DNA of 64,000 nt from Botryllus schlosseri (taxonomy: Eukaryota), in the NCBI GenBank assembly GCA_051294905.1, contig CM119372.1, positions 34,846,001 to 34,910,000 on the forward strand. The letters are read 5' to 3'. Made by a program: the position numbers and the translations under genes. Position 1 is the stretch's first letter. Each line of letters begins with the position of its first letter. The notes under the pieces were generated by a model, which was not told the DNA's origin, did no database searches, and worked only from the letters and a program-made list of their open reading frames with translations. Positions 11,568 to 37,700 of the stretch are shown piece by piece.

Positions 11568-13022
11568 TCAACCTGAACGCTTGGTTGTCCAGATGTCCAC
11601 GCAAGGGTCACTCAATTTCTTTCCAGGCCAAGGTGATTGGGGCAGTTGGTTTTTGTCAGCGCCGGCAGTACGGTGGAGCAAAAACTTGACCGCACTTTCT
11701 CTTGACTTCTCGATCGGTGGTGAGGATTCTTGATGCGTGACCTTGGCCGCTGATATTTCCTCCTCGAACACAGAACTTTCAGAAGAGCTGTTACTACTTG
11801 AAGAGCTGCAACTTGAAGCGGTACTTGAAGTCGAGCTGCTGCTTGAATATCTATTCCTTCGGCGACTGTTTTCCTGGCTGCGTTTCTGAGTTTGCAATCT
11901 GCAAGCAGAACAGTTGCTACTGTACGACGCCGCCGAGTCTGATGACGAGCCTTCGCTTTCCCCGCCGCTCCGCTCCGCCATATACCGCTCCACTAAGTTG
12001 AGATTGTTTGGAGTTGGTTTCTTGTTAGAGTCAGAATGATAATCTTGTAGATAGTCGATATCATCATCCGTAATTTGGATATGAGGCACTGGTGCAGCCA
12101 CTGTTATATTCGCAGAGTCCCCAGTGCCCTTGTCATTTCCGTCGTGTGTTCCTTCAGTTTTATCGCCTTTTTGTGTGGTGTCTCGTGTCTTCGGCTCATT
12201 CTTTGGCGACATTGTTTTAGTTTCAGTGGCTGGTTCTTGTGGTATGGCGTTCTTCTTCGCATTCTCATTGTCGATTCCCCTTTGAGACTTTTGATCATTT
12301 GGATCCGCAGTAGATTCTGCTGGCGTTTTTGTATTATTAGGACCTGCGTCTGGCTTGTCCTCTTCGGCAATACGCCGTTCATTTATGGTGGGATTGGAAG
12401 CATCATTGATGTTTTCAAGATTATTATCAAGCGTTTTTCTATCCTCTTTTTTGATCGAGTTCCACGCATCCGCAGATTTATCAGAAGCAGATCGTTTATC
12501 CGCATCGAGATGGTGTACATCGTCGCTGTCATTTTTAATGTTTTGGTTTCGATCGACTACGTTTGCGCTAGAGACACTATTCGTCATTGAATCCAGCAAT
12601 TCTTGAGTGGAACTTCGGGGAGGTGATGAATTCCCGGGTGTCTGTCGGACTTTGTAACTTTGTGCTATTGAGTCTAGCAGTTTGTTAGAAGAGCTCACAC
12701 CGTCAACACGGGCAGATGTATTTTTTATTTGTTCACATTCTTCTGGTGATGTCACTTTTGAAATTGTTTCATCAGTCAATTCAAGACTTAATTCAGATTC
12801 CTCTACTTTTTCAATGCTCTCGATGCGGTCGTTATTGGAAGGTACCTGCTCTACTTTCTCTGTTTTACATTCTCCCGTTTCGCTTACCATGACATCAGCT
12901 TGCTACACCTCATTTGAGACACGTAGGACCTCCTGTTGGTTGGAATCTGACTGAACAATGGGAGCATCCAGGGAAGCAATGCTTGAATAGTTGCCAACGT
13001 CGACATTGTCAGATGTGGGAAT
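11568..13022 (-). pseudogene. 3' part of a large host exon encoding a low-complexity S/E/K/D-rich (probably disordered) protein; interrupted by the P-like element
   Basis: 440-aa ORF with a poly-Ser tract. The frame continues upstream through one TAG to the TSD at 13022 and rejoins 32100-32330. No recognisable domain. Confidence 0.6.
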
Positions 13023-13142
13023 CAGGGATATCTAGACTAGGGATTGATAACTCTTTTTTGCCCATTACGTGATGAGGGCAAAATTACAATTATCTGTGAG
13101 GACTGCTGTCTGCACCTACGGACCCTTGTTGCCCACTATTAA

Positions 13143-14423
13143 CAGGGCCGTAACAGCACTTCGTCAGGCCCCCCCAAACCTTTGGTCTTGGGCCCCCCAT
13201 AGGGTCATAGACCGAACTTCTGGGGGGCTTCGCCCCCCAGACCCCCCTCCGGCGATACACTTTTATCTTCATCATTTTCATTGGGGATTTGTTTAGTGAA
13301 ACAGCTTTTGTCACCGAAGCGCGCGAAGCGCGGAAAATTTCTAGAATTCAGAATTTCATCGGTCAGTATGATCGGGAATTGCATATATTGTTATCAATTT
13401 TTATCTTCTCTCAGCTCACGTAATCAGATTTGCCGGTAGAGCTGAGTGAGGTGTGTTTGAAAAGGTAGGACCACTCAATAATAATTAAACATCTTCGGGC
13501 GTATACCCGTTGGCAGGAACGAAACAGCATCTCGTCAGGCCCCAAAAACGTGGGTCTCGGGCTCCCATAGGGTGATGAAACGAACCCCCATCACGTTGTC
13601 CGCGTTTGTCATGAAATTAGCCGTACTGTATTGTGAGCCAGCGCGAAGCGCGAAAATTTTCGATAATTTATGATTAAATCGGTCAATCAGATCGGCGATT
13701 GCATATATATTATGCTATCAATTTATTGTCCTCTCTACTCACGTAATTAGATTTACCGGTAGAGCTGAGTGAAGTGTCTTGAAAACGGGAGGGCCCGTAA
13801 ATAATGATTAAACATCTTCGGGCGGGCGGACCCGTTGATATGACTTCGTTACATGATGTCATTTCGTGACTTCCAGTCTGCTATATCAAAAAATATAGAA
13901 TCGTCCAAACGTAGGCTTCTAAACTAAGAGACGCACACGATTTCAAATTGGTATTTCATCACTGGCATAAAATTTTTCCCAGCGGGATGGTATTTGTCTT
14001 GTGAGGTTCAGATTGCAAAGACAGGAACATTTGGCGCCAGTCATTTAGGAGCCCATGGTCAATTAAACCTATACGTATTTTGTATATATAACGAAGTCTT
14101 CGGTCTGCATAAGGACATAGACCTTTTCGGCTAAGCTTTTCTCGCTGCCGATCGTTCTGGCACACTTCTTGGAGTCTCATGTTATATGGCCTAAACCTTG
14201 ATTGTATGTCTTGGTGGGTGGTGGCGCGGTAATGGCCCAATACCCAATAATATAGATAAAAGGCGACTTGAATTCGCGCGCAGCGCGAAAAAATTTTGAA
14301 AAGATTGCATAAATTTTCAAGAAATACTCTATGATTTATGCTAATTCACGAAATAATTTTGGGCCCCCTTCGAGCTCGGCCCCCCCCAATTGGAGGGTTT
14401 GGGGTGCGGCAGTTACGGTGCTG
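13143..14423. mobile_element. Non-autonomous DNA-transposon-like repeat; a diverged inverted relative lies at ~33610-34630
   Basis: Ends CAGGGCCGTAAC / GTTACGGTGCTG; internal duplicated GCGCGAAGCGCG blocks; long homology to 33610-34630 in reverse orientation. No clear TSD. Confidence 0.55.
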
Positions 14424-14655
14424 CTCCTTCAAGTTAGATAACAAATTGCTGATGACATCATTGTGGCCATGACGTCATAATGACCATGGCGTCATAGTGA
14501 CTATGACGTCACAAATACTTTTCTTTATTATAATATTCGTGAAATGGCATGCAATTATTTAATTATAAACACAAGATAAACCGTTACAGGACATGCAATA
14601 CCACCAATTTCGATTGTGTCAATTCTTGGAAGCCTTTGACGTAAGCTTACTAATT

Positions 14656-16522
14656 TTACGTAGTTTTTTGATGGTGGCTCAACAAGAGATGGTTGAATCG
14701 CTTAAGTTCATTCTTCGCAAAGCAATTGAAAGCTGTCTGGGCGATGGAGTTGAAGTTTGCATGACCAGATTGACAGCAGTTATTCAAAAGAGGGCGCATT
14801 AGGCTTGACAAATGAACCACCTCGTAAGTTGCCTCCGTGAAAACAAATCTTTGGTTTTGACAACAAAACAATTTTTGCTTCATGTCCATGGAATCACTTA
14901 TGATGGTGAAATATTTGACAGCAAGCGTCGTTATTGCAAAGCATAACTCGGTAGGCTCAGCAAGTCCACCTCGATCAGCCATTTTGAATATTCTTTTGTA
15001 TTCTTCTGGGAAGTAGAAATCCAAATCCGGAACGTCACGGTCGGTTATCAGCAATGTTTTGCAATCCATGCACTTTCGTCGCACAGAAATTGATCGGCCA
15101 ATGCATCCACTGACAAAATATATCACACCGGCCTCTTCAGTTGTGATAAAATTCAGCGGTGCAGAGATAGGCAAAAGAAAGCTCACCAACCATTTGAAAT
15201 CTTCTGCAGGTTGTAACACAGTTGCGGTCAAAGGTGGGTCTTGTTCATTCAAATTAAGAATACTCTTCAAACCATGCTGCTGAAGAAAGCTCAAGCAGCG
15301 GAACTTTTTTTCCGCAGGCAGTAACTGCTTCACGGACATGAAAAAGTTTGCCCCATTAACTTGCCGGTACATGTCAAATCTAGCCTCAATCGGATCTGAC
15401 AAGACTTTTCCGGTGAGAAAATACTTCACGCCATGTTGCCGTTGAAGGTATCTTGACAGTGAAAGGACTGAGGTCATGGTTCGAATACAAGCCATAAAGG
15501 TCTCGTTAGTGAGTCCAGCTCTGTCAGATCTTTGCCACTCCATGAATATAGTTATGGCTTTGTTCAGGGATATCTAGACTAGGGATTGATAACTCTTTTT
15601 TGCCCATTACGTGATGGTTTGCCTTCCCCAGTCAGACCCGCGAATGAGCCATGGGTGTACTCAATTCTTTGTGCTGTATACACCTCATCTATCATGAGGC
15701 ATACGATACGATCGCGGGGTGTTAAGTCTTTTGATCGCTCTTTTAAATAATGCAAGTCTACTTTTCTTGGCTCCACAGTCATTTTCGATGATATTTGGCG
15801 AAGTCGACTCATCGAAGGCAAGGCAAAGAAATGCTTCAACTTTTTGTACAGGACTAGTCAATCTCGACAGGAAAGCCAACATAAGAGTATCAGGTGAATA
15901 TCGGCGACCTTTTGGGTGGATTTGAATCAATTTCAACTGTTTCACAAGAAATCCTAACAAAGGTGTCATGCAGCCATCCTGTAGAGCTGTGGACTCTGCC
16001 GTAGCGACGAGATAATCTTCCGGGATAGACACAGCAAGACTAATGCTGCTCGAGTCATCACTGCCACTATACAGTTTCCTGCATACAGCAAGCACATTGG
16101 CTACCTGGCTGGTGCTTTGTACAAATCCGGTTGGAAGCACGTTCTCATACATCGATCTGGGAACTGGTTTGGAATTAACAAAAGCAAAGACTTCCAAATT
16201 CTGCTTTATGAGAAGGGATATGGCAAGTTTCGGTGGATTGATCATATTTTCTGATGTCTCTATCCAGTGAAATTGCAGCGAATCATCGGTCATCGGTGCA
16301 CACAGAACTATATCCAGATGGTAGTGTCTCGTTCTTAATCTTCTCCTTCCGAGAAGCTAATGTTTCAATATTTTCAAGCAGAAAAATTTGCTTGTTACGG
16401 CCCTCAATTACAGAATTTTGCATTTCACGTCTTGCAGAAGCACTTGTTGATTTCGTACTCCGAGATGTAGGGCTCGGTACACTCAAATACCCCGACAGAT
16501 TTGGGAAAATATGAGGAACAAC
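14656..16522 (-). pseudogene. P-element/THAP9-like transposase, central and C-terminal parts (frameshifted, internally deleted)
   Basis: Motifs KGRRYSP, LPSMSRLR, CLMIDEVY (first catalytic Asp region), LTNETF, YFLTGKVLSDPIEARF (catalytic Glu region) and YFVSGCIGR..CMDC, spread over four ORFs. Confidence 0.85.
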
Positions 16523-17429
16523 AGTAGTAGTATAGATCGCTCGCGATTCGTAATGGGCTCTTATGGGCGCGGCGGTGAGGTGCCTGAAAACTCGTGGTGG
16601 TGATGGCACCCTTTTACACCCCCTCTCGGCGGTGAGGTGCCATGTGTTCTTATGGATGCGGTGATGATGGCACCCTTTCGGGTATAGGCTGCGGTGGTGA
16701 GGTGCCGCGAAAACTCGTGGTGGTGATGGCACCCTTTTACAACCCCTCTCGGCGGTGAGGTACCTATGTGGTGATGATGGTACCCTTTCTGGTATAGGCT
16801 GCGGCGATGATGTGCCTACGGATTCTTGTGTCGTAGTGAACTAACGTTGTGGATATAGGCTGCGGTGATGATGTGCCCACGGATTCTTGTGTCGTAGTGA
16901 ACTAACGTTGTGGATATAGGCCGCGGCGATGATGTGGCTGTCGTGTATTATTACACGGTTTCTACTGATTCGCCATGTGTTCTTATGGGTGCGGTCGTGA
17001 TGCGCACTTTCAACCATCTCTCGCGCGGTGTTGAATATGTACGAGTCACCAACAATAACCGCACAAACGGAAACGTGGCTTGTTGTGAGGATTAAGCAGC
17101 GCGACCTATATTTCGAATGACCTGCGCGCTGAATTATTTCCCGCCAACCGCGTGCTACTATCGATTATTGCACTAGACCAGTCAGTGTGAAATAGTTTGA
17201 TCGTAAATTATGATATATGATGTCGTAGTTTAGTCGTGTCAAATGACCGATCGTGTTCTCTTTCCTCGCTATTGATTGCTAGCTGAATAATACTTTCGGC
17301 TTATTCGCTGTTTCGCGCCTACAGAATAGTCTGCTGTTCACAGTCGCAACAAGAATCACAAGTATACACATTTACACATTCGTTTATTACTCTGAAATCA
17401 AACTCTTCACAAAAACACGTACAATCGTA

Positions 17430-17879
17430 TCATTCACTTTTTTTATCATCGCCAAAATTATCCAAGTATTCCTCGGTTGAAAACCCTTGAGCTCTTTTTA
17501 TCAAGAATGCGATAGCATGATCTCCACACACATCTGAAGTTTTACTCTGTAACTGTTTCCCAGTCACTGAAAATTCATCCGGCTCCAGGAATTCGATTAT
17601 CTGAGGTTTTAGTGGTCCGAAGCCTAGCGAATCATGAAAATGAGTATCGTCATCTCTGTATATAGACACCCAGTGAGATCCAGGCAAACTCGATTCGTCG
17701 TAATTAATGGTGATAGCGAATTTTCCGCTAGTTGGTTTCTTCGGTAACTGATCTACTGGATAAGTTCGGCGATTCGAATATCGACAATAACCGCGTTCGC
17801 ATACTAACACTCTAAAAAGGTGTGAAATATTTGTAAAAATCCTACGACCACTCACAAGATAACACATCAGAATAGTCAT
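17430..17879 (-). CDS. Adenain-like (Polinton/Maverick-type) cysteine protease, probably degraded at both ends
   Basis: YPVDQLP...INYDESSLPGSHWVSIY...FHDSLG...QLQSKTSDVCGDH gives the H/D/Q/C catalytic pattern. A 1-nt shift in an A-run hides the expected C-terminus (NDTIVRVFVKSLISE). Confidence 0.85.
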   Translation of the reverse strand: MTILMCYLVSGRRIFTNISHLFRVLVCERGYCRYSNRRTYPVDQLPKKPTSGKFAITINYDESSLPGSHWVSIYRDDDTHFHDSLGFGPLKPQIIEFLEPDEFSVTGKQLQSKTSDVCGDHAIAFLIKRAQGFSTEEYLDNFGDDKKSE

Positions 17880-18833
17880 CTCTCGTGGTTTGGTGTTACA
17901 AAGGTAGGAATTATAAGTAATATTTTGGACGACAATGACATATCGTTATTCTTATGGACGCGGCGACATGATAACGTTACAGGTATAGGTTGTGGTGGTG
18001 ATTCGCCATGTGTTCTTATGCGTGCGCTCGCACGTCGTACTTTCAAGTATAGGTATCTCTCGCATGTCGTATTGGAAACTCGTGTTGGCTCGCTCACGCG
18101 GCGAAATTTTAGTAATCAGTTTGTCACAGTACTTGATATCGCTGGTAAGATTTAACAAGTAACGAATAACAGACCGCGGTAACTTGAATAGCGACAAATT
18201 GTCACTTATTTCCGCTCTAACTCTAATCCTTTGTGAAGTGAACGCTTATTCAAAAGGGCGTGATATAATTTTAAAATCCAACGACCACTCACCGGATAAT
18301 GCTTCAGACATATAGCAATCCCTCATACCCGCCTACAAGGTAATATTTCGGTAATTAGTTTGTCACAGAACCGTCGCAGGCGGTGATTGGAAAACCGACA
18401 ATTTGTCACTCGCCCGCGATCGCTATATGTTTCACGCCTCCAGAATAGTGGCTGACTTTAGTTGCGTGATAAGATCCATGAAAATATTCAATCAATGTGT
18501 TAGTTTATCAACTTGAAATGAAACTCACTACACAAATCAAGTCGATTCGTATCTGAATGTTTTAAATCGGTACAACTCTAATCCTTTGACAAAGCCCTTA
18601 ACGCGTTTTTGGTGAATCGAACGTAACCCGAATATTACTGACGCCGACTTTCAGCCGCATCGAATTATTCGCACATTCCGCGTCACTGTTTTCGCACTTA
18701 TAGAATCAATACCAACTATAACTCTTCAAGAATCAAGAATCACAAGTATGTGCATTACACAGTTATTGTCTTTATTAACTTGAAATCAAACACTTAACAA
18801 AAACACACAACTAATCATTTGGCAACTCTAGCA

Positions 18834-19109
18834 TTACCAAAAAATTCCAGTATTGTTGATTGAAAATCCTTGAGTCATTATTATCAAAAATGTTATAGTA
18901 CCGCATCGGGATCCATTCGCGGGATGTACTAAAGGTAAATCCAAATAATCCACATTCGCGGGATGTACTAAAGGTAAATCCAAATAATCCACATTCGTGG
19001 GATGTACTAAAGGTAAATCCAAATAATCCAGAATGAAATATTTGGACTTTGACATAGTGTGAATTGAAATAGGATTGACAAACACGACTACCAACTTTGA
19101 TCCAGCCAC
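18834..19109 (-). pseudogene. Diverged paralogue of the adenain-like protease (catalytic His absent, internal 39-bp triplication)
   Basis: AGSKLVVVFVN..YFILDYLDLPLVHP aligns with PGSHWVSIYRD..HFHDSLGFGPLKP, and RCGTITFLIIMTQGFS aligns with VCGDHAIAFLIKRAQGFS. The downstream nucleotides are also similar. Confidence 0.6.
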
Positions 19110-21849
19110 ATTTCAAGATCATACTTTGAAACAAGTAATGTAACATTACAACTCTATTCACGATCCCGCTTTCCATTTGTCAAAGAAATATTTTAACATC
19201 TTACCATACTCAAAAGAATTATTCACAACATTAACAATTGTTAAAAATCTAGTTTTCACTTACTTGATTATATCACTGCAACTCATAAATTTGAATTAAT
19301 TCATCCTGGTTGTATTCGTATGCTCGGTCTTTTTTATTCAATTGTAAAGGTTGTTACTATTCTGAAGACAAAGTATTTACTAATCGGTGCATATACGATT
19401 TGACTTGGACATATTATATTTTGAGTATACGAGATTTGAATGTCTGAACAATAACTGAGAAATAATTTATCACAATTAAATCCGTAATATTACAGCGTAA
19501 AAGATATTGGAATGTCAGCAACTCTGCAAGGTCATAGTTACTACCACTAATTTACCCGACCAACTCGTCATGATCATTCCTGAAATCAACACAAACGTGA
19601 CCACTGACTTGAGTTAACCACAAAACAGCATCAAGTTTTAAATCCACTTGTAGCTTACGGCTTATTTGAATGCGGGTTATGTTTTGTTGTAATTGAGTGT
19701 ACGGAAATAGTATTACGTCTCGACATATCACCATGTCGGAATTTGTGGCAGAGAATTGAAACATATGCACTTTACAGAGTGTGAAAATATCTCTTTGAGT
19801 ATCGAGTACCGTTCGAAGCAAGCGATCAATTCTTAATCATTTCAGTAACTCCCCATTGTGTGTGCTAAATGTAAAATATCGCGAGGTTATACACTCTAAG
19901 ACTTTGATTATTACAAAAGTAAATTGTGATATGTTTGTTAGATGCATCCAATTCAACTAGAAGTGTCTAGTGCCCAACACTCGTAATATCAAAAAAGTAC
20001 TCGCTACACTGTTATTTGCTAAACGTGTTTTGCATTGTTGTTCATTTGTAGTATTGAATGAAATTGTTCTTGAACCCTCAAATAATAATTCCCGACATGA
20101 AACCAAGCCGCTGAAAGTCGTTACCATCACGAAGATACAATGTGTACGATGTTTGTCAAATGTGTCCTACCTGGCCAACAGAAAACAATTTTCACTAGCT
20201 TGGTAATGAAACCGAAGTCTCCATTCGATATATTGTTTGCGTCAAATACTTTACAACGAACACATTTGCGTGGTTGAGCTTTACATCATCAGACTGTCAT
20301 CTGTACATCAAGAATACATCAGACTTGTAACTGGATCGTTTACCTAACCGAGTTGATATTTTTGTCATTTAGTGATTGCTGAACATACCACTTCGAAATA
20401 CTGCGTTGATCTTAATTTCCATCATCGTGATAAGTGAAGTACATTTGTTTTGAATTCATAACAATAGGCTTTTCTACGACATGATAAATTATTGACAAGT
20501 TCTGCTTAGAAGATTGGTTGCATATCACGAAAAATAATATACCACACATATTATTACTGTTACTCCATTCATCGGTATTTTTTCCGTTGTCGATTTTCAA
20601 ACGAGTAAAATTTATTACTTGAGTTGCTCTGCTTAATGTAAATGTAAACTCGCCCATCTTTCAACAACAAACAATGTTAAAATAGTATACAATCAAACAC
20701 AACAAGTTTTACGATACTAATTATTATCCCACATAACCCATTTCTTACTGAAGACATATGAAATATATTCATGTTACACGAAAATATTCGCTCATGCTAC
20801 AAACCTGTACAATGATTGGTGGTGCTTTCAAACTGTTTCGATACCTCAAGAACTTTATTGTCTGAACGGTTGTTCATGTATCGTAATAATCAAGTAGTTA
20901 AACATAGAACTAGTATTAACAGAAACACCAGAGTTGTTTACACAAAAGTTTGTATGTGTACAGTATACGAATACCATTTGTAAGTCCAGCACAATTGTGG
21001 TATCCATACGAGTTTAGTTAACACAATTTACGACACCGAGGTCGCGTCATCTTTCGTAAGACAACAAACCAAGGCTTCAGGATATGTCCATGTCATAGCA
21101 ATAAATCAGCTACTCCAACAACAGAGTGCATATGTTTCTAGTTACGGCGCTTACATCTTACACACAAATCAATCTACTTTGCTAACGAAAAGTGGTGAGT
21201 CATCATATGGTTGTCCTCACAACTAAAACATACTATCACACAAAATGGTCGTTATAGTTTGCACACCAACGGTACATCGTACAAGTAACAAGTCTCGAGA
21301 ATCCAGTTATTCAAAAAACGTGAAAGTATTTCTACACCAAGTCGTTATGTTGACGAAAGCGTATATTGTAAGATCATGATCGATTTACATTCGTTGGTCA
21401 CAAAATGTCACTACTCTAAATAATTATTTTTCACTCAAACACAAACGCATACTTGTCACCATTCGTTTTCATCAAGCACGAGTTCAAGAAACTTACTTAC
21501 TACGATATGAATTTTTATTTTTATGTTGTGTAAATAGGTAATAATTAATTCAAGTAACACTATATCAACATCATCGAGTTGTGCTAATAGATTTACATGT
21601 GGTCTTGTGGTTTTCGTCGGGACATACAGCACGAACTAACTGTAGACTCCTCTCTGTTGTACAGCTACTCGGTAATCGAAATGCATTAACATGTAAACAA
21701 CGATCTTGTTTCGTCACACCAAAAATATGTTCACTGTCGCGATACTCCGCACAAGACGTGCATAGCCTTTTCACACTCGTAATAGTATACCAACGTCAAG
21801 CGATAACGTTTACCAACACCAACGACACTAAACCCACGACGTTTACCTA

Positions 21850-22600
21850 TGTAAAATTACCACTTTCACTTGTCAGTCCATCGTTTACCTGACTAAACAT
21901 ATTATTTTCCTTTGGAGATCTGACGTTTACCCAGAGTAAGAAACCATTTTCACTTGTAAATATTTTTTTTTCCTCGGCTAACAAACCTTTTTTCACTTGT
22001 AAATATATTTTTTTCCTCGGCTAACAAACCTTTTTTCACTTGTAAATATTTTTTTTCTCTGGTTAACAAACCTTTTTCACTTGGAAATATATTTTTTCTC
22101 TTGGTAATAAACCTTTTTCACATGGAAATATATTTTTTCTCTTGGTAATAAACCTTTTTCACATGGAAATATATTTTTTCTCTGAGTAACAAACCTTTTT
22201 CACATGGAAATATATTTTTTCTCTGAGTAACAAACCTTTTTCACTTGGAAATATATTTTTTCTCTGGGTAACAAACCTTTTTCCCTTGGAAACATATTTT
22301 TTCCCCGGGTAACAAACCTTTTTCCCTGAGCAACAAACCTTTTTCACTTACAAATATATTTTTTCCTGGGTAACAAACCTTTTTCACTTGGAAATATATT
22401 TTTTTCCCTGGGTAACAAACCTTTTTCGCTTGGAAATATATTTTTCCCTGGGTTACAAACCTTTTTCACTTGGTGATCCGTCGTTTACCTGAGTAAAAAT
22501 ATCATTTTCCTTTGGGGATCTGGCGTTTACCCAGTGTAACAATACATTTTCTCTTGGTCATCTAGCTTTTCCTAGAGTAACAAAACCATTTTCATTTTGA
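21850..22600. repeat. ~41-bp tandem array, left arm of copy 2
   Basis: Units are directly visible; one unit more than the right arm. Confidence 0.9.
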
Positions 22601-24894
22601 AATCTGACAACCACACCGACAATTTGATATTTTTGTATTTTCTTACAGCGAACAGCGACAAAATATACACCAACAACGACTCCGATACATTTGTCTAATC
22701 AAATATTCACTTGTGTTGGTGCATCCCATCAAAATCATCGGTTACCCACATGCAATGCGCTCTTGTACACAGAAATGCATGTTTTGGAAACTTGGACAAT
22801 AGGCTTCGATAGTTCTGTGCTGTCTGGGTTCGTGCTTTGGATTTTCCAGAGTCAAAATGTCTGAATAAAACACCTCCTCGACGATGGTTGGTATGTGGAT
22901 AACGGTGTTCGGAAAACGGTTGGATTTATGTCACCCATCGCGATAACAATTCCAGGTCAAGTTTTCCCCTCGCATGTTTACTATATTGTGTCTTTATTGG
23001 TCAATGTATGCCTCGACATTCAGTTTGAAATCGGAAACCCTGATAAAGTATGCAACCGGATCCGGATATCAACTCTGAATCGATAAACCAATGAACAATA
23101 TTCAAAGTAAACATGTTACACCCTGTGTTTCCACGAAAAAATACCATCCAGACATACGTCGCGCTTGTTTGCCCACACCAGTATACGCGTAAATGGAGGT
23201 GTGTGACATTGCATGCAATGTGTTGGTATACAAACATCGATCCACAGACAATATCATAGCCGGTAGTTTTGATGTAGATCGAATGTCATCACACCCGATA
23301 ACAATACCAATAAGCCACATTGTAATGACTCTGAGTCCGCGGTATTAGTCATGACCCTATCTCCGGACAGACGTCCCAGATCAATTGGAGACATCGATCA
23401 ATATCCGTCGCGTTGTCGACACCGAACTTTTCTGCTGCAGCGTTTGACCAATGTGAACTATCGAAGTATGGGTGCTCGAAATGATTGCGATCAGTCTTTC
23501 AGTCACGATGCATCGATGTCGCTACTCCCACATAACGACTCCAGATAAATATCGTGAACAGTGATTCTGCAAATCTCGGACTGATACTGTGATCCAATAT
23601 TGTGTGTTTCTGTGGAATCAAGACTGTAATCGTACACCACAATGGAAATCATAAAACACATCATCGTAAGGATCCAGTTCGTCCTGTGACATTTCGAAAC
23701 GGTCATCGCCACAATAGATCGGTATCATTTTGAAACGACATCGTCACAAGTCTATTGACGTCGATTCTGTTGGTCATGTCAATCCATTTCACAATCCACC
23801 GTTTTTCAAGTCCCTGCACCATAGTGTTACGACACAGACAAGAAGCGACGGTGGAAATAATAAAACACGAAAAGCACACTTTGGTGTTATTTGACATGGA
23901 TTTTACACGAGATGAACCTCACATTCGAGCGATGAATTGGAATGGTGATTGTATTGTTGACGTCAAAGGAAAAGAAATGTATCGATTTATCGGTTTCGTA
24001 CATATCCAACAAAAATCTGGGTATATGATTGTGCATGGTTCGCATATTCGACTGTGAACGCCCAATTGGTATATGTTGTACAGTTCACTTTCACCGTCGT
24101 GCGAATAACCCATGTTAGGGTTCCATGTTTGTGTGTCTGTATGTCATGCTTCAGATTGACTCAGAGTCATTACAATGTGGCTTATTGGTATTGTTATCGG
24201 GTGTGATGACATTCGATCTACATCAAAACTACCGGCTATGATATTGTCTGTGGATCGATGTTTGTATACCAACACATTGCATGCAATGTCACACACCTCC
24301 ATTTACGCGTATACTGGTGTGGGCAAACAAGCGCGACGTATGTCTGGATGGTATTTTTTCGTGGAAACACAGGGTGTAACATGTTTACTTTGAATATTGT
24401 TCATTGGTTTATCGATTCAGAGTTGATATCCGGATCCGGTTGCATACTTTATCAGGGTTTCCGATTTCAAACTGAATGTCGAGGCATACATTGACCAATA
24501 AAGACACAATATAGTAAACATGCGAGGGGAAAACTTGACCTGGAATTGTTATCGCGATGGGTGACATAAATCCAACCGTTTTCCGAACACCGTTATCCAC
24601 ATACCAACCATCGTCGAGGAGGTGTTTTATTCAGACATTTTGACTCTGGAAAATCCAAAGCACGAACCCAGACAGCACAGAACTATCAAAGCCTATTGTC
24701 CAAGTTTCCAAAACATGCATTTCTGTGTACAAGAGCGCATTGCATGTGGGTAACCGATGATTTTGATGGGATGCACCAACACAAGTGAATATTTGATTAG
24801 ACAAATGTATCGGAGTCGTTGTTGGTGTATATTTTGTCGCTGTTCGCTGTAAGAAAATACAAAAATATCAAATTGTCGGTGTGGTTGTCAGATT

Positions 24895-25600
24895 TCAAAA
24901 TGAAAATGGTTTTGTTACTCTAGGAAAAGCTAGATGACCAAGAGAAAATGTATTGTTACACTGGGTAAACGCCAGATCCCCAAAGGAAAATGATATTTTT
25001 ACTCAGGTAAACGACGGATCACCAAGTGAAAAAGGTTTGTAACCCAGGAAAAAATATATTTCCAAGCGAAAAAGGTTTGTTACCCAGGGAAAAAAATATA
25101 TTTCCAAGTGAAAAAGGTTTGTTACCCAGGAAAAAATATATTTGTAAGTGAAAAAGGTTTGTTGCTCAGGGAAAAAGGTTTGTTACCCGGGGAAAAATAT
25201 GTTTCCAAGGGAAAAAGGTTTGTTACCCAGAGAAAAAATATATTTCCAAGTGAAAAAGGTTTGTTACTCAGAGAAAAAATATATTTCCATGTGAAAAAGG
25301 TTTGTTACTCAGAGAAAAAATATATTTCCATGTGAAAAAGGTTTATTACCAAGAGAAAAAATATATTTCCAAGTGAAAAAGGTTTGTTAACCAGAGAAAA
25401 AAAAATATTTACAAGTGAAAAAAGGTTTGTTAGCCGAGGAAAAAAATATATTTACAAGTGAAAAAAGGTTTGTTAGCCGAGGAAAAAAAAAATATTTACA
25501 AGTGAAAATGGTTTCTTACTCTGGGTAAACGTCAGATCTCCAAAGGAAAATAATATGTTTAGTCAGGTAAACGATGGACTGACAAGTGAAAGTGGTAATT
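24895..25600. repeat. ~41-bp tandem array, right arm of copy 2
   Basis: Reverse complement of 21850-22600. Confidence 0.9.
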
Positions 25601-28345
25601 TTACATAGGTAAACGTCGTGGGTTTAGTGTCGTTGGTGTTGGTAAACGTTATCGCTTGACGTTGGTATACTATTACGAGTGTGAAAAGGCTATGCACGTC
25701 TTGTGCGGAGTATCGCGACAGTGAACATATTTTTGGTGTGACGAAACAAGATCGTTGTTTACATGTTAATGCATTTCGATTACCGAGTAGCTGTACAACA
25801 GAGAGGAGTCTACAGTTAGTTCGTGCTGTATGTCCCGACGAAAACCACAAGACCACATGTAAATCTATTAGCACAACTCGATGATGTTGATATAGTGTTA
25901 CTTGAATTAATTATTACCTATTTACACAACATAAAAATAAAAATTCATATCGTAGTAAGTAAGTTTCTTGAACTCGTGCTTGATGAAAACGAATGGTGAC
26001 AAGTATGCGTTTGTGTTTGAGTGAAAAATAATTATTTAGAGTAGTGACATTTTGTGACCAACGAATGTAAATCGATCATGATCTTACAATATACGCTTTC
26101 GTCAACATAACGACTTGGTGTAGAAATACTTTCACGTTTTTTGAATAACTGGATTCTCGAGACTTGTTACTTGTACGATGTACCGTTGGTGTGCAAACTA
26201 TAACGACCATTTTGTGTGATAGTATGTTTTAGTTGTGAGGACAACCATATGATGACTCACCACTTTTCGTTAGCAAAGTAGATTGATTTGTGTGTAAGAT
26301 GTAAGCGCCGTAACTAGAAACATATGCACTCTGTTGTTGGAGTAGCTGATTTATTGCTATGACATGGACATATCCTGAAGCCTTGGTTTGTTGTCTTACG
26401 AAAGATGACGCGACCTCGGTGTCGTAAATTGTGTTAACTAAACTCGTTTGGATACCACAATTGTGCTGGACTTACAAATGGTATTCGTATACTGTACACA
26501 TACAGACTTTTGTGTAAACAACTCTGGTGTTTCTGTTAATACTAGTTCTATGTTTAACTACTTGATTATTACGATACATGAACAACCGTTCAGACAATAA
26601 AGTTCTTGAGGTATCGAAACAGTTTGAAAGCACCACCAATCATTGTACAGGTTTGTAGCATGAGCGAATATTTTCGTGTAACATGAATATATTTCATATG
26701 TCTTCAGTAAGAAATGGGTTATGTGGGATAATAATTAGTATCGTAAAACTTGTTGTGTTTGATTGTATACTATTTTAACATTGTTTGTTGTTGAAAGATG
26801 GGCGAGTTTACATTTACATTAAGCAGAGCAACTCAAGTAATAAATTTTACTCGTTTGAAAATCGACAACGGAAAAAATACCGATGAATGGAGTAACAGTA
26901 ATAATATGTGTGGTATATTATTTTTCGTGATATGCAACCAATCTTCTAAGCAGAACTTGTCAATAATTTATCATGTCGTAGAAAAGCCTATTGTTATGAA
27001 TTCAAAACAAATGTACTTCACTTATCACGATGATGGAAATTAAGATCAACGCAGTATTTCGAAGTGGTATGTTCAGCAATCACTAAATGACAAAAATATC
27101 AACTCGGTTAGGTAAACGATCCAGTTACAAGTCTGATGTATTCTTGATGTACAGATGACAGTCTGATGATGTAAAGCTCAACCACGCAAATGTGTTCGTT
27201 GTAAAGTATTTGACGCAAACAATATATCGAATGGAGACTTCGGTTTCATTACCAAGCTAGTGAAAATTGTTTTCTGTTGGCCAGGTAGGACACATTTGAC
27301 AAACATCGTACACATTGTATCTTCGTGATGGTAACGACTTTCAGCGGCTTGGTTTCATGTCGGGAATTATTATTTGAGGGTTCAAGAACAATTTCATTCA
27401 ATACTACAAATGAACAACAATGCAAAACACGTTTAGCAAATAACAGTGTAGCGAGTACTTTTTTGATATTACGAGTGTTGGGCACTAGACACTTCTAGTT
27501 GAATTGGATGCATCTAACAAACATATCACAATTTACTTTTGTAATAATCAAAGTCTTAGAGTGTATAACCTCGCGATATTTTACATTTAGCACACACAAT
27601 GGGGAGTTACTGAAATGATTAAGAATTGATCGCTTGCTTCGAACGGTACTCGATACTCAAAGTGATATTTTCACACTCTGTAAAGTGCATATGTTTCAAT
27701 TCTCTGCCACAAATTCCGACATGGTGATATGTCGAGACGTAATACTATTTCCGTACACTCAATTACAACAAAACATAACCCGCATTCAAATAAGCCGTAA
27801 GCTACAAGTGGATTTAAAACTTGATGCTGTTTTGTGGTTAACTCAAGTCAGTGGTCACGTTTGTGTTGATTTCAGGAATGATCATGACGAGTTGGTCGGG
27901 TAAATTAGTGGTAGTAACTATGACCTTGCAGAGTTGCTGACATTCCAATATCTTTTACGCTGTAATATTACGGATTTAATTGTGATAAATTATTTCTCAG
28001 TTATTGTTCAGACATTCAAATCTCGTATACTCAAAATATAATATGTCCAAGTCAAATCGTATATGCACCGATTAGTAAATACTTTGTCTTCAGAATAGTA
28101 ACAACCTTTACAATTGAATAAAAAAGACCGAGCATACGAATACAACCAGGATGAATTAATTCAAATTTATGAGTTGCAGTGATATAATCAAGTAAGTGAA
28201 AACTAGATTTTTAACAATTGTTAATGTTGTGAATAATTCTTTTGAGTATGGTAAGATGTTAAAATATTTCTTTGACAAATGGAAAGCGGGATCGTGAATA
28301 GAGTTGTAATGTTACATTACTTGTTTCAAAGTATGATCTTGAAAT

Positions 28346-28621
28346 GTGGCTGGATCAAAGTTGGTAGTCGTGTTTGTCAATCCTATTTCAATTCACACTA
28401 TGTCAAAGTCCAAATATTTCATTCTGGATTATTTGGATTTACCTTTAGTACATCCCACGAATGTGGATTATTTGGATTTACCTTTAGTACATCCCGCGAA
28501 TGTGGATTATTTGGATTTACCTTTAGTACATCCCGCGAATGGATCCCGATGCGGTACTATAACATTTTTGATAATAATGACTCAAGGATTTTCAATCAAC
28601 AATACTGGAATTTTTTGGTAA
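28346..28621 (+). pseudogene. Diverged adenain-like protease paralogue (mirror copy)
   Basis: Translation identical to 18834-19109. Confidence 0.6.
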
Positions 28622-29575
28622 TGCTAGAGTTGCCAAATGATTAGTTGTGTGTTTTTGTTAAGTGTTTGATTTCAAGTTAATAAAGACAATAACTGTGTAA
28701 TGCACATACTTGTGATTCTTGATTCTTGAAGAGTTATAGTTGGTATTGATTCTATAAGTGCGAAAACAGTGACGCGGAATGTGCGAATAATTCGATGCGG
28801 CTGAAAGTCGGCGTCAGTAATATTCGGGTTACGTTCGATTCACCAAAAACGCGTTAAGGGCTTTGTCAAAGGATTAGAGTTGTACCGATTTAAAACATTC
28901 AGATACGAATCGACTTGATTTGTGTAGTGAGTTTCATTTCAAGTTGATAAACTAACACATTGATTGAATATTTTCATGGATCTTATCACGCAACTAAAGT
29001 CAGCCACTATTCTGGAGGCGTGAAACATATAGCGATCGCGGGCGAGTGACAAATTGTCGGTTTTCCAATCACCGCCTGCGACGGTTCTGTGACAAACTAA
29101 TTACCGAAATATTACCTTGTAGGCGGGTATGAGGGATTGCTATATGTCTGAAGCATTATCCGGTGAGTGGTCGTTGGATTTTAAAATTATATCACGCCCT
29201 TTTGAATAAGCGTTCACTTCACAAAGGATTAGAGTTAGAGCGGAAATAAGTGACAATTTGTCGCTATTCAAGTTACCGCGGTCTGTTATTCGTTACTTGT
29301 TAAATCTTACCAGCGATATCAAGTACTGTGACAAACTGATTACTAAAATTTCGCCGCGTGAGCGAGCCAACACGAGTTTCCAATACGACATGCGAGAGAT
29401 ACCTATACTTGAAAGTACGACGTGCGAGCGCACGCATAAGAACACATGGCGAATCACCACCACAACCTATACCTGTAACGTTATCATGTCGCCGCGTCCA
29501 TAAGAATAACGATATATCATTGTCGTCCAAAATATTACTTATAATTCCTACCTTTGTAACACCAAACCACGAGAG

Positions 29576-30025
29576 ATGACTATTCTGATGTGTTATCTTG
29601 TGAGTGGTCGTAGGATTTTTACAAATATTTCACACCTTTTTAGAGTGTTAGTATGCGAACGCGGTTATGGTCGATATTCGAATCGCCGAACTTATCCAGT
29701 AGATCAGTTACCGAAGAAACCAACTAGCGGAAAATTCGCTATCACCATTAATTACGACGAATCGAGTTTGCCTGGATCTCACTGGGTGTCTATATACAGA
29801 GATGACGATACTCATTTTCATGATTCGCTAGGCTTCGGACCACTAAAACCTCAGATAATCGAATTCCTGGAGCCGGATGAATTTTCAGTGACTGGGAAAC
29901 AGTTACAGAGTAAAACTTCAGATGTGTGTGGAGATCATGCTATCGCATTCTTGATAAAAAGAGCTCAAGGGTTTTCAACCGAGGAATACTTGGATAATTT
30001 TGGCGATGATAAAAAAAGTGAATGA
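29576..30025 (+). CDS. Adenain-like (Polinton/Maverick-type) cysteine protease (mirror copy)
   Basis: One amino-acid difference from 17430-17879; same H/D/Q/C motifs. Confidence 0.85.
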   Translation: MTILMCYLVSGRRIFTNISHLFRVLVCERGYGRYSNRRTYPVDQLPKKPTSGKFAITINYDESSLPGSHWVSIYRDDDTHFHDSLGFGPLKPQIIEFLEPDEFSVTGKQLQSKTSDVCGDHAIAFLIKRAQGFSTEEYLDNFGDDKKSE

Positions 30026-30933
30026 TACGATTGTACGTGTTTTTGTGAAGAGTTTGATTTCAGAGTAATAAACGAATGTGTAAATGTGTATACTTGTGAT
30101 TCTTGTTGCGACTGTGAACAGCAGACTATTCTGTAGGCGCGAAACAGCGAATAAGCCGAAAGTATTATTCAGCTAGCAATCAATAGCGAGGAAAGAGAAC
30201 ACGATCGGTCATTTGACACGACTAAACTACGACATCATATATCATAATTTACGATCAAACTATTTCACACTGACTGGTCTAGTGCAATAATCGATAGTAG
30301 CACGCGGTTGGCCGGGAAATAATTCAGCGCGCAGGTCATTCGAAATATAGGTCGCGCTGCTTAATCCTCACAACAAGCCACGTTTCCGTTTGTGCGGTTA
30401 TTGTTGGTGACTCGTACATATTCAACACCGCGCGAGAGATGGTTGAAAGTGCGCATCACGACCGCACCCATAAGAACACATGGCGAATCAGTAGAAACCG
30501 TGTAATAATACACGACAGCCACATCATCGCCGCGGCCTATATCCACAACGTTAGTTCACTACGACACAAGAATCCGTGGGCACATCATCACCGCAGCCTA
30601 TATCCACAACGTTAGTTCACTACGACACAAGAATCCGTAGGCACATCATCGCCGCAGCCTATACCAGAAAGGGTACCATCATCACCACATAGGTACCTCA
30701 CCGCCGAGAGGGGTTGTAAAAGGGTGCCATCACCACCACGAGTTTTCGCGGCACCTCACCACCGCAGCCTATACCCGAAAGGGTGCCATCATCACCGCAT
30801 CCATAAGAACACATGGCACCTCACCGCCGAGAGGGGGTGTAAAAGGGTGCCATCACCACCACGAGTTTTCAGGCACCTCACCGCCGCGCCCATAAGAGCC
30901 CATTACGAATCGCGAGCGATCTATACTACTACT

Positions 30934-31239
30934 AACAACACCCGGTTTCAAACGTGATCTTGATAATTTCTGAAATTTGTGCTTGTTTCGGCGGGTGATG
31001 TTTGTATCACAGGTGTCTACCATGAAGTCATCAGGAGAGAAATGCTTCGCACACACCCTGGTGTATATTGTTACTATCCAATTTTTGCGTGGAATCGCTC
31101 TAATCCATTTCTGCCGTAAATGTTGCTCTTGTGAAAAAAAAGACGTCCGTTCATGTAAAACTGAGCATTCCTCTACTGTAGAACTTTTTCTGGGATTGTA
31201 TCCAGAACGGCAATTTGGCACACAGCAGGTATATCCCAT
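30934..31239 (-). pseudogene. N-terminal THAP zinc-finger domain of the P-like transposase
   Basis: MGYTCCVPNC...KWIRAIPR..W...VCAKHF...RLKPGVV. It joins PHIFPN at 16516 once the insertion and one TSD copy are removed, restoring the AVPTIF-like box. Confidence 0.9.
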
Positions 31240-32099
31240 TCGTCAATCGTAGTGTCAGCGTCAAATAAATTCAAGTCTAATATAATTAGTTCCAGCAATT
31301 AATGGTGATAAAATGAAAATTAGATGATATAGGCGTGTAAGCATATGAGCCTGTAAGCCTATAGACCTGTATTATGCCTATTGCCTATAGGCATGTAAGC
31401 CTACATGCTTGCAAGCCTACAGGCCGGTAAGCCTATAGGGCCAAAGCCTTGCACGCTGCCCAAAGCCTTGCACGCTGCTCAGTCGCCCACTCGCCCAGCC
31501 TATAGGTCTGTCTGTCCGTCTATATACTGTGTAGCAATAGTGGCTATACGTCTAGACAAAAAAAACACGAGTACAAATCCGCCAGTCACTACCACTACTA
31601 CTGATGTACTGAACGACTCGACTAGTTCTTACCGGTACTTCTCGCGCGTGACAAACCTAACGAGCTGAGTAGCCAATACTGGTACCGCTCCAACGTTTAA
31701 ACTATTAAAACTTATCCTCAGTTCACTTCAGTAAGATCTACGGTCAGACCATCCCGTGCATCAATAGTAACGACGCAGTTAGCGATGAACGCAAACCCTC
31801 AATTACAATTAGAATTTGTACCGGCACTGCTCAAACGCGATCGTCATCGACCTTTCGCACGAGATTTATGAAACAGTTTGCCAGCTAACTTACGATGTAC
31901 GATCGTCCCTAACCTATCTAGTAGATGCCTGGCGAACAGTATATATCCCTGAATTGACAAATAACAACGCACACAATTTTAACTGCGAGCGCAACGATAT
32001 TCCTTCACCTCAACTGCTGTTTGACAAGAATGCCCTCATTCCGTCATTGAGTACGCGGTCACGTGACTAGTTATCAATCCCGTAGTCTAGATATCCCTG

Positions 32100-32330
32100 T
32101 GTGGGAATATTGCGATGTTAGGCTTCTTGAGGTGTTGATGACTTAGTCTCTTCAGTCGCTGTTGGTTCAACAGGAACGGTGGTTGACTACTGTCTGATTT
32201 CTGTAATATTATGATTGCACCATCGCCATCCCCGCTAGTAGGGCACTTTTCCTGATTTTCATCAGACATCTCGGTGTTGTCAGTAATCACAATTGATATG
32301 TGGTTCTGGCTATTATCTTCTTTACGACTC
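32100..32330 (-). pseudogene. 5' part of the interrupted host exon
   Basis: Splice acceptor TATTTTTTAG| at ~32331. The frame STTVPVEPTATEETKSSTPQEA*HRN joins IPTSDNVD at 13022. Stops and a frameshift are present. Confidence 0.5.
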
Positions 32331-33609
32331 CTAAAAAATAAGCGATCAAATGTGATGCTGCGGTTCTGTTTGAATATAATATATTTAGCTACGAAGGATT
32401 TGCAGTCATAGGGTTACCATATTTTGGAATCGGGAAAGTAAAGACACTTTTACCAAATCAGAAAACATCCAATTTTGCTGGAAAATTTGTGGAGTTGACT
32501 AAAAAACAAGACGTCACTTTCAATCGGCTCCCGGATGACCCGCTCCAATGTCCGTATAGTAGCTATTTAGAGTCATTTATGCCGATTTACAGTCGAACAT
32601 TTCCATTATCGTAGCTGTAAAATCTGTAAAAGAGAACGAATTGCCAAAAAGGAGGACATTTAGGCGTCCTCGGAGGACATTTTGAAAAGCCTGAAAAGGA
32701 GGACTAATCCTCCTAGATGAGGACGTATGGCAACCCAAGCAGTATTGCTACTAGGGTTGGTATGAACAATCGTTCACGTTAGTGTTATCTGCAATGCTAT
32801 ATTTAGGTCCATGATTCAACATGATTCAGAGGGTCAAAAGATTCTCACCCATTCAATACTGGGTGCTAATGCGGGTCCTTGATGGTGCGAAATGACCTCG
32901 GATCTATTACAATGCGTGGACGGAAAGACAAACACGTTTCCAGATGTCACTCCAATTTTCCAAAATTCAAAGAAATTTAATCCGGATTTCTGCTAATTCC
33001 GATGACAAGGGCCAAAACACACATAGGCGAAGACATAGCGTACATTTCTTTGGAATACCCGTGGTCCCGCAATGTGATGTCACAGATTCATGCTCATGCT
33101 CACGTTAATCCTCCCACGGACGAGAACCTTTCAGTGGTTCGCTTTAACACCATCCCTCAGTGGCTACTGATCACAATATTTATATGCTCATCGTGATCAA
33201 CAGGAGAACGACCATTATAATAAATATTGATTAACCGATATCATTCGTTACCTCTAACTCCGCAGAAATATCATTATTACAGTACCGATAGGAGCGATAT
33301 GTCTACCAGACTGCAACGAGAGGGGTATGGTTCCAGTGAATATGGAAATGCCCGGTTTAGCTCAATAGGACAGTAACTATGGTAGGCTGTATTGTTTAGT
33401 GCAGTGGTTCTTAACCTTGCCTCCAGCGCCCCCCAATGTGCGCTGGCGATTTTGAAGGGGGCGTAAACGCGCGGGGGGGGATATGGGGGGCGCTCGGCTA
33501 AGGGGGCGGTATGGGGGCGCTGGAGAAAAATGGCTTCGCAGTAGATGATGTGATTGTAGGACCTATCCTTAATGAGTATTCAGAGCAAATTAACACCGAA
33601 AACATCGTT

Positions 33610-34707: not shown

Positions 34708-37700
34708 AGTATTATAGTAGATCGGTCTGGGGGTGGCAGAGGCTCTTATGGGTGCGGTCGCACGGTGCCGAGAAACTCGTAGTGGCACGGTGACCCTTAT
34801 CTCTTATGGGTGCGGTCGCACGGTGCCATTGTGTCTTATGGCGGGGGTGGCACGGTTACCTTTTCGGGTATAGGCTGCGGCGGCACGGTGCCGCGAAAAC
34901 TCATGGTGGCATGGTTACCTTTTCGGGTATACGCGCAGTGGCACGGTGACCCTTCGGGTATGTCCTGTTGATGATTTGACTAACGTTGCGGGTATAGGCG
35001 CGGCGGCACGGTGTTGAATAAGTATCAAGTAAATAGTCACGTGATTGGTTCTTAGTTATTGTGTATATCACAAATTAATATATATGACCAATTTGAAGTA
35101 ATCCCAACGTTTACGGTGAGTGCGACAGTGATATATCGTTATTCTTATGGCGGGGGTCGCAAGCGGCTCTTGTGTCTTATGGCGGGGGTGGCAAGCGGCT
35201 ATTGTGTCTTGTGGTCGCACGGTAACCCTTTTCAGCATAGGGATCGGTCGCACGCGGCTTCGTTGTTGGCATGTCGTACTTTCGGGAATAGACTGCAGGC
35301 GGCATGTCGTACTTTTAGCAAAAAAGGGTGTGAAATAGTTTGCTAAATCTAGGAATCACTTGCTTGGTAATATTTTGGTAATTAGTTTGCCACAGAGCCG
35401 GCGTAGACGGCGATTCAAATACCAACAATAGCCGCGTTCACATACTAACACTTCAAAAAGGTGTGAAATATTTGTAAAATCCTACGATCGCCCACAAGAT
35501 AACACCTCAGACATAGTCATCTTTCACGACTTGGTCTAATAGCCATACCGATCGCTCACGCGGTGAAATTTTAGTAATCTGTTTGTCACAGAACTTGATT
35601 TCGCTGGTAAGATTTAATAGGTAACGACTAACAGAACCGCCAGTGTCGGTAACTTGAATACCAACAAATTGCCACTTATTTCCATCCTAACCCTAATCCT
35701 TTGTGAGGTTACCGCATACTCAAATAGGTGGGGAATAATTGTAAAATCCCACGATCGCTCACAAGGGTAAGGAATAACCGAACCACAACGGCGGCGACTT
35801 GAATACTATCAAATTGTCAATTGTTGGTATAACTCGAATCTTGACTTGACCAACTTTCAACTGCGTTTCCGGATCATTCACACATTCCACGCCGCTGTTT
35901 TAACACTTATAGAATCAATACCAACTATCTCTAACCCGATAATATTCAATCATTTTAGTAATTTACCTACTTTAAATCCGTTCGCCAGATGTACTACAGG
36001 TAAACTGAGATAATCCTTGAAACTGACAACTCTATTCACGACTCCGTTTCCGTTTGTAAAATAGAGTTTCAGAAATACTATCACTATGACAACTCAACAT
36101 TTTAACATCTTGCCATGCACAAAAGAGTAAAATACAAAAACCTTGGTAAGTCAATCCGTTTGTAGTAACTCACCAAACCAAAACAAAAAGTGTCCGTATG
36201 AAAAGTAGACAAGACTACGCGAGTAATCACTACAGCCCACAAACATACCAACTCAGTTGTATCCATATCCCGTCTTTTTATTCAACTGTAAGATGAAGTA
36301 ATTACTACTTGGCGCGCGACTTGAGATTAACATGTGTTTTGAATATAAGACATTCGAAAGTCTGGCCAACGTAATTAAGAATTCATTTCTTGCGATCAAA
36401 CGCCGGTGTTACATTGAAAGTTATCATACTGCAAACATAAGGATTGACACAGTGATTTGACATATGACGTATATTTTGTAATGTTCGACCATGACTTGGT
36501 TATTAAATTATTCACGGTAATTAGACTCGGTGTTTTGGTAAAGGTTATTATGACAGCAACAAACTTTTCATTATCATGGTTATTAAAACATCAAATTGTT
36601 AAGCCAGACTTACATGTGCGAAATATTCTTGATTCGGATATTATTCCGGATTGGTACAAAACAATCGTTGTATTGCAGACAACAGAAAATGCTTTAAAAA
36701 TGCAATCGTTTACAATAATTAGGACTAAAGATGAAACAACAATATCGGTATTATTACATTCAACAACCAGTACAATTATTAAAATCCATCGTTTGCGATA
36801 ACCGGTGCTAAAGATGTAATAATTCCATTATTCATACATTGAACACCCGATACAAAATGCTTTATTATCGCGATTCGCAACGGGTAATTGAAATGTAGAG
36901 TCAGTATATCACAATATCGTTACTATTGAATCCAACAATTGATACGATTTATTGTCGGAATTTGTGACAGCGAATTGAAACATCCATACCTTACAGAGTG
37001 TGAAAATATCACTTTAGGTATCGAGTACCAGTAGAAGTGGGTGAACAATACTTAATTCGTGACTCGTCGTTGTACTTGCTAAATGTAAAAAATTACACGG
37101 TTACACTCTAAGACCTTGATCAGCACAAGAGCAATTTGGAATATCATTACTGGCTGCAACCTATTCTACTAGACAAAACCCACAGCGATAATAAAATCAA
37201 AATATGTGCTACACTGAAATCTACAAAATTAGGGATCATACATTATCATATGAATATTCTAAAGTAATTATAATCATAAAACCAAACCGCTGAAAGTCAT
37301 TACCACCCCCACAAAACAATTTGTATTATATTCACCAAACGCATCACAACTCAGTATACAGAAATTATTTGTAGAGTGCATACCGACAAAGAAATCATGA
37401 ACACAACCAACACCGAAAATGATAAACACGTTTCGCGTTACTATTGAGACAAGTTCATTTCTATCGGGCGAAATAAATGCCACCAAAAAACTCACAGCAT
37501 GCAAAGGTCTTGATTGATATGCATTTCAATTTGTGTCTCATGATACCAGCAGGCATTTTAGACATATTACGAATTGTTAAACCAAAGTCGTACGTCCGAT
37601 TAATAGTTGATTGGAAACTTGTTCACGTACCTCAACCATTACAGAAAAGTATAACACCATTGCCCGACAATCTTTTACAAAAGGGATCGAAACCAAGTCA

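Follow-up and report, generated by a model that had tools for sequence, protein, structure and literature searches.

The 64,000-nt stretch of the Botryllus schlosseri genome analysed here (assembly GCA_051294905.1, contig CM119372.1, positions 34,846,001 to 34,910,000 of the forward strand; hereafter the window, numbered from its first base) contains three related elements, found by self-comparison, that together occupy 49% of its length. One of them, copy 2, is a complete palindromic element with Maverick/Polinton ends and no overall strand, spanning 14,411 bp (16523–30933; start AGTAGTAGT, end ACTACTACT). It consists of a left arm of 6,815 bp (16523–23337, plus strand), a unique spacer of 820 bp without strand (23338–24157), and a right arm of 6,776 bp (24158–30933, minus strand) that is the reverse complement of the left one, so that inverted arms make up about 94% of the element. 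Each arm carries a tandem array of a 41-bp unit (21936–22594 on the plus strand; 24898–25519 on the minus strand), the left array being one unit longer. The element is flanked on both sides by the same strandless 6-bp target site duplication, AACAAC (16517–16522 and 30934–30939). An earlier reading of this DNA from its letters alone (the sequence-only reading) had placed the feature at 18834–28621, which lies inside the element but covers only its middle.

Copy 2 resides within a THAP-domain DNA transposon on the minus strand (13023–32099), with CAGGG...CCCTG ends and a direct repeat of 9 bp on its flanks. Its THAP reading frame (PF05485) is split by the insertion into halves that flank copy 2 on either side. 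Copy 2 is thus the innermost member of a nest, and its 6-bp duplication is perfect. Two flank alleles, at 16467 and 16491, were not seen in the contigs of sequencing run X4; contigs drop variants, and this absence gives only a hint of an insertion polymorphism at the copy 2 site.

The other two elements are only partly represented in the window. For copy 1, the inner part of the left arm (1–3617, plus strand) lies in the window and the outer part and left end outside it; this arm is without 70 bp after position 2071. It is followed by a strandless spacer of 997 bp (3618–4614), to which the copy 2 spacer is homologous in opposite orientation, and by a right arm on the minus strand (4615–10668) that ends in a Maverick-type terminus at 10668, includes the segment 8066–8982 as well as 70 bp at about 6118–6187, and holds no protease gene. 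Copy 3, which we used as outgroup, is a single plus-strand arm (34708–40888) with its terminus at 34708, and stops about 60 bp before the arm/spacer border. A 151-bp tandem array of 4.7 units (40886–41593) begins exactly at the point where copy 3 breaks off. Target site duplication could be assessed for copy 2 only, copies 1 and 3 each having one end in the window.

All comparisons reported here cover the five arms of these three elements and public contigs, the DNA runs having been examined as contigs. Site patterns were counted in BLAST-delimited blocks comprising 2,009 aligned arm columns of copies 1 and 2. In 133 of these columns the two copies are separated in both arms together, and in 16 one arm alone differs; not a single column groups left arm with left arm, or left with right, across the copies. 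Of the shared indels, 21 likewise sort by element and 2 do not, and in a tree of the inner block the arms pair by element with support of 100/100 and 98/97. The spacers of copies 1 and 2 are homologous (68 of 820 aligned bases differ), and the border between arm and spacer falls at the same base in both, with the nearest homogenised difference 14 bases away from it. Since the two copies share a spacer and an identical border, the palindrome predates their split. Homogenisation of the arms came later, once the copy 1 and copy 2 lineages had separated, and extends along the whole compared length. This is what the sequence-only reading had proposed, namely that arms are homogenised within each element while elements diverge from each other, and the tree, the 133 versus 0 site pattern and the common spacer all support it; the clustering of left arms with left arms that would have spoken against it did not occur in the five-arm comparison.

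Divergence between copies amounts to 6.6% over all arm blocks and 8.3% in the spacer (p = 0.13), and the middle arm blocks are not slower than the spacer (113/1,414, p = 0.81). The copies are mosaics: copy 2 is nearer to copy 1 over 19039–21230 and nearer to copy 3 over about 21200–21900, where copy 1 hardly aligns, and each mosaic segment of copy 2 is present in both of its arms. In both of its arms copy 1 carries some 650 bp (1667–2312 and 5913–6593) that hardly align with copies 2 and 3, which points to recombination with a more distant lineage. The subterminal tandem unit also differs per copy (58 bp at 10138–10530, 61 bp at 16793–16936 and 32 bp at 34785–35214), with related motifs. The observed/expected CpG ratio is 1.2–1.4 in the arms and spacers of copies 1–3 as compared to 0.9 in 42000–53000, without CpG loss in the element.

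Several larger changes are mirrored in the two arms of copy 2. A stretch of about 918 bp corresponding to 8066–8982 of copy 1 is missing from both arms, with letter-identical junctions at 19734–19735 (plus strand) and 27720–27721 (minus strand), in agreement with the deletion of about 920 bp noted earlier. The left arm of copy 1 retains the in-window part of this stretch, and the undeleted form is visible as loose ends at 19734 in all three contig sets. A 39-bp unit is present three times in each arm (18914–19030, plus strand; 28425–28541, minus strand), and all three units equal their mirror, down to a one-base variant in the third; in copy 3 the unit is single, as had been stated, at about 35981–36016, with 28 of 36 bases alike. 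The third mirrored change is a frame break in the protease gene; in each arm it falls at the corresponding homopolymer run (17438–17444 and 30011–30017). Here the A-run frameshift described earlier was found again, together with a mirrored loss of 22 N-terminal residues.

The description of these changes as specific to copy 2 was not supported. Another run length at the protease break occurs in only a minority of the summed depth in each of the three contig sets (2,282/35,671, 2,405/14,109 and 125/573), and the break cannot be polarised within the window because copies 1 and 3 carry no protease. The deletion, the triplication and the protease break may thus be traits of a subfamily.

Within each element, differences between the arms are few. 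Over 6,775 columns the arms of copy 2 show 7 substitutions (0.10%; 95% interval from the 7 differences, 0.04–0.21%), besides four 1-bp indels and one 41-bp unit; those of copy 1 are distinguished by 24 substitutions in about 3,570 columns (0.67%), one 1-bp indel, one 43-bp array unit and the 70-bp indel at about 6118–6187. One border substitution per copy, at the spacer edge, was left out of these counts. This largely matches the earlier description of scattered substitutions, one 41-bp unit and an indel of about 70 bp in copy 1, to which the 43-bp unit of copy 1 and the 1-bp indels are now added. Although the two copies lie only 5.9 kb apart, their arm divergences are 6.5-fold apart (p = 1.3×10−6). 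The arm-only substitutions are evenly distributed (Kolmogorov-Smirnov p = 0.82 and 0.47), and the 24 in copy 1 comprise 7 derived in the left arm, 6 derived in the right arm, 4 conflicting and 7 unpolarised. Because part of the 70-bp sequence is kept in copies 2 and 3, its absence from the left arm of copy 1 is a loss. Transitions and transversions number 111:86 among the fixed changes and 14:17 among the arm-only ones, two spectra that do not differ (p = 0.25).

The ends of copy 2 fit the (AGT)2//(ACT)2 motif and AACAAC is duplicated on both sides, which agrees with what the accessible text of Barreat and Katzourakis (2021, PMC8097293) gives for Mavericks: (AGT)2//(ACT)2 or (AG)3//(CT)3 ends, a 6-bp target duplication and, in vertebrates, terminal repeats of 46–1,447 bp. 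In its proportions copy 2 departs from the class, in which a long unique core is flanked by repeats of tens to about 1,500 bp; here arms of 6.8 kb enclose a core of 820 bp. Identity as a foldback element was also considered. Foldback elements of the Mutator or P/Galileo type have a target duplication of 7 to 11 bp and ends of the DDE transposase type, and this identity was rejected on the 6-bp duplication, the Maverick end motif and the protease remnant.

That remnant is the only gene recognised in copy 2. It encodes an adenain-like (adenovirus-type) cysteine protease, as expected of a Maverick, though in broken form, and lies on the minus strand in the left arm (17390–17765) and, with the same two lesions, on the plus strand in the right arm (29690–30065): in addition to the frame break, the 5' end is missing, so that 22 N-terminal residues of P0001, an intact natural relative with 99% identity over 109 residues that is encoded on a 7,972-bp contig, have no counterpart in either arm. 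With E up to 0.001 as cut-off, 1,541 relatives of the protease frame (17433–17945) were found, and a profile of 40 of them matches the adenoviral protease 1avp at 1.8×10−8. A Peptidase_C5 match was found in 19 of the 40, but not in P0001, and the protease searched as a single sequence gave no match in Pfam or among solved structures. A possible second and more decayed protease remnant is located at 18811–19179 and 28276–28644, around the 39-bp triplication; its match to P0001 is weak (10/20 residues, E = 0.87). Among 12 candidates from a scan of viral contigs there was one weak match, on a 50-kb viral contig (L001, 9009–9260), with 28% identity to the protease.

Other coding content was sought in several ways. 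Open frames in copy 2 reach at most 171 codons, no match at the curated Pfam cut-offs was obtained in the element frames scanned, and genes for polymerase B, integrase, packaging ATPase and capsid proteins were not recognised in copy 2, no dedicated profiles for heavily decayed remnants having been used. No match at or above 0.9 was returned by an atlas that was searched for functional genes of the arm and spacer sequence. The only protein match for a gene in the arm or spacer, P0153, reads tryptophan at positions that are stops in the window, and was set aside as apparently spurious. In the inner conserved block of the arms no frame is open in all three copies, and the best synonymous excess (9 vs 4) falls in a frame that contains stops. 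In all three copies, conservation of the arm is highest in the 570 bp adjoining the spacer (22770–23337, 3008–3617 and 40330–40888), which are a candidate for a cis-acting signal or a recently exchanged tract.

Part of the stretch is present in 20 of the 24 listed runs, and the summed contig depth in runs X1 and X4 is of the order of 10^5 over the arm as compared to 10^2 over the flank, a ratio that is not a copy number. The family is very large in several samples of this one species, with the many dispersed copies expected of a non-autonomous Maverick derivative. No related loci were found in JGI metagenomes, either by DNA pattern (0) or by protein (0 of 142 candidates). In one RNA run 163 reads fall on the stretch, 159 of them only partly, which says nothing on expression either way. 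With a longest frame of 171 codons, and because no Pfam cut-off was reached in the scanned frames, copy 2 is not an autonomous Maverick; it is most likely a dependent derivative, non-autonomous and relying on a helper.

Some further features of the window were noted. The THAP transposon that hosts copy 2 carries an extra internal copy of its own left end at 15565, and its transposase frames are broken. It in turn interrupts a low-complexity frame of 444 codons together with the part upstream of it (11568–13022 and 32100–32413), which carries stops and is possibly a decayed host exon. Elsewhere, an element with a reverse-transcriptase match (RVT_1; 58121–61420), which we take to be of the Penelope type, has two inverted arms, each 1,503 bp long and without a single difference between them; a further fragment at 54197–54683 is about 98% alike.

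How the arms of these elements were made alike can be explained in more than one way. On balance we consider it somewhat probable that they are reset while a helper drives the replication of the element through a hairpin intermediate. The dependent element would be mobilised by an autonomous Maverick, which would supply polymerase and integrase, and the displaced single strand would fold into a hairpin with a stem of 6.8 kb and a loop of 0.8 kb. A single-stranded intermediate held together by its terminal repeats is part of a published Maverick model, in the accessible text of PMC4046053. We infer that a further step is needed, because plain hairpin copying would preserve the differences between the arms: one arm would have to be rewritten on the other, by trimming and resynthesis, by repair of the mismatched stem, or by a turn-back of the polymerase, near the loop, onto the strand it has just made. 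Whatever the template arm carried, whether a point change, an indel or a recombinant tract, would in this way enter both arms, and a fresh insertion would begin with identical or nearly identical arms, each of which would then mutate independently. The even spread of the arm-only differences, their left/right balance and the 6.5-fold gap between neighbouring copies fit a reset around insertion followed by independent decay, and the gap fits different ages better than one conversion equilibrium. The explanation is further favoured by the 70-bp loss that is still confined to one arm of copy 1, and by the perfect target duplication and innermost nested position of copy 2.

Some observations weigh against this explanation. 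Repair initiated at the ends, or turn-back, predicts that leftover differences should lie near the spacer, and no such excess was seen in copy 2 (3 differences in the outer half and 4 in the inner half, a count of low power). At 19792 the non-majority depth in run X1 is 576, roughly 40-fold the depth of 14.5 that a single locus appears to have there, so that the arm difference at this site may not be private to copy 2 and may have been inherited. The innermost arm block has evolved more slowly than the spacer (20/595 vs 68/820, p = 1×10−4), and the comparison involves two two-armed copies only.

The slow innermost block would be expected if the arms were instead kept alike after insertion by chromosomal gene conversion from arm to arm, as in mammalian Y and X palindromes, in which case the grouping by element would look no different, but arm divergence would reflect the balance of mutation and conversion rates and not age. 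The arms are kept close by a spacer of 0.8–1 kb, conversion has been proposed for the long near-perfect ends of Mutator elements (Hunter et al. 2023, PMC10401008, in its accessible part), and human Y palindromes have arms held above 99.9% identity with kilobase-sized tracts, according to the accessible part of Hallast et al. (2013, PMC3723533). Nevertheless, the arm differences are not clustered into converted and unconverted tracts (a comparison of low power), neighbouring copies have the 6.5-fold gap in divergence, and GC-biased fixation was not seen on 35 informative changes, which include no weak-to-strong excess relative to base composition (21 weak-to-strong, 14 strong-to-weak; inner block, with a poorly aligned edge). 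Exchange between two neighbours in inverted orientation, the right arm of copy 1 and the left arm of copy 2, was found in 0 of 2,009 columns, a weak point given that these are about 7% diverged. We regard continuing conversion as an unlikely source of the pattern. Slightly less likely still is that resets are rare, a snap-back or the rebuilding of a half-element at a fixed border founding each subfamily, which then spreads quickly; arms would pair by subfamily, daughters would take over the arm differences of their founder, and divergence would date the founder or master copy and not the insertion. The lesions do look subfamily-wide in the reads, mosaic segments of differing affinity are each found in both arms, the border is fixed to the base, and copies 1 and 2 are distant, so that the lack of shared left/right sites is uninformative on close sisters. 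Yet the arms of copy 2 differ by 0.10% as compared to 6.6–8.3% between copies, which, if rates are equal, places the last reset in roughly the last 1–2% of the time since the split; and at 17142 and 19792 the right-arm state is found in other members of the family.

Long palindromes are difficult to sequence, and fold-back chimeric reads, collapse or polishing could in principle have made the arms look alike; some of the 1-bp indels lie in homopolymer runs and may themselves be errors. Such an artefact is very improbable here, as the mirror halts exactly at the element ends; beyond these lie the 6-bp duplication and two unlike flanks, each with one half of a single THAP frame. The arms also differ by indels of 41, 43 and 70 bp, which would have been lost in a collapse and could not arise from polishing. 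In run X1 a contig spans the left junction without difference (68 bases to the left and 30 to the right, one base short of the bridging rule).

If the arms are indeed reset around mobilisation, their divergence would give a rough age, probably a minimum, counted from the last mobilisation, and thus an internal clock for a DNA element. Recopying at each replication in the manner of adenovirus panhandle repair, and the dating of insertions by arm divergence, both suggested in the sequence-only reading, go beyond the support that the present comparison gives. A stronger form of this proposal, which we put forward tentatively and hold to be less likely than its general form, is that these elements are snap-back Maverick satellites at very high copy number, which pass through a 14-kb self-complementary hairpin and have the whole 6.8-kb arm rebuilt at every mobilisation. 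Every insertion would in that case preserve, as a fossil, the single-stranded intermediate hypothesised for Mavericks, and would come with a clock of its own, as in pairs of long terminal repeats. The clock fails if the arms are converted on the chromosome or reset only rarely. If chromosomal conversion does continue, the family constitutes a natural experiment on palindrome conversion at many loci. The Maverick replication model in which a single strand is paired by terminal repeats is a hypothesis in the literature (PMC4046053, accessible part), and many palindromes of 14 kb with 6.8 kb of paired sequence allow it to be tested from genomes only. In addition, palindromes of this family matter for assembly quality and genome stability in B. 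schlosseri.

Several known systems resemble these elements in part. In the panhandle repair of adenovirus, and in the palindromic mini-genomes of protein-primed replicons such as phi29, strand displacement from a protein primer yields a single strand with ends that pair and can template each other; adenovirus repeats are about 100 bp long and the genome is not integrated. Correction of the adenovirus kind over 6.8 kb, including a 918-bp heterology, would be an extrapolation. Autonomous Mavericks, in the accessible text of PMC8097293, share with copy 2 the (AGT)2//(ACT)2 ends, the 6-bp duplication, a size range of 12.7–24.6 kb and an adenovirus-type protease; their repeats measure 46–1,447 bp as compared to about 6,800 bp here, and the protease of copy 2 is broken. 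Closer in layout are the butterfly polintons of the Pannagram preprint (10.1101/2025.02.07.637071; accessible part), in which repeats of about 2 kb duplicate the adenain protease in both arms, and whose derivatives without polB are mobile without a polymerase. In these a long unique core is present; the elements described here have repeats three times as long around a unique part of 0.8–1 kb.

Human Y palindromes (PMC3723533, accessible part) likewise combine near-identical arms with diverging orthologues and a unique spacer, but are fixed chromosomal structures of more than 100 kb that are not mobile. Their arms evolve more slowly than the spacer (1.44% vs 2.00%) and with a GC bias, and slower arms were seen here at most in the inner block. 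In maize Mutator elements (PMC10401008, accessible part) which cycle between unlike and identical ends, lineages recombine and one end is then copied onto the other, so that the left and right ends of a subfamily resemble each other more than either resembles related elements; these are cut-and-paste DDE transposons with much shorter ends, for which break repair was proposed. We found no published giant-palindrome derivative of Polintons in the literature covered, most subscription journals, Repbase and supplements being outside that scope, and the accessible parts of a giant-transposon review (PMC6431247) and of a nematode study with 744-bp repeats (10.1101/2024.01.15.575659) describe nothing like a 94% palindrome. 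The homogenisation of arms is a process already known from sex-chromosome palindromes and Mutator ends, while its vehicle and its scale in B. schlosseri appear to be new.

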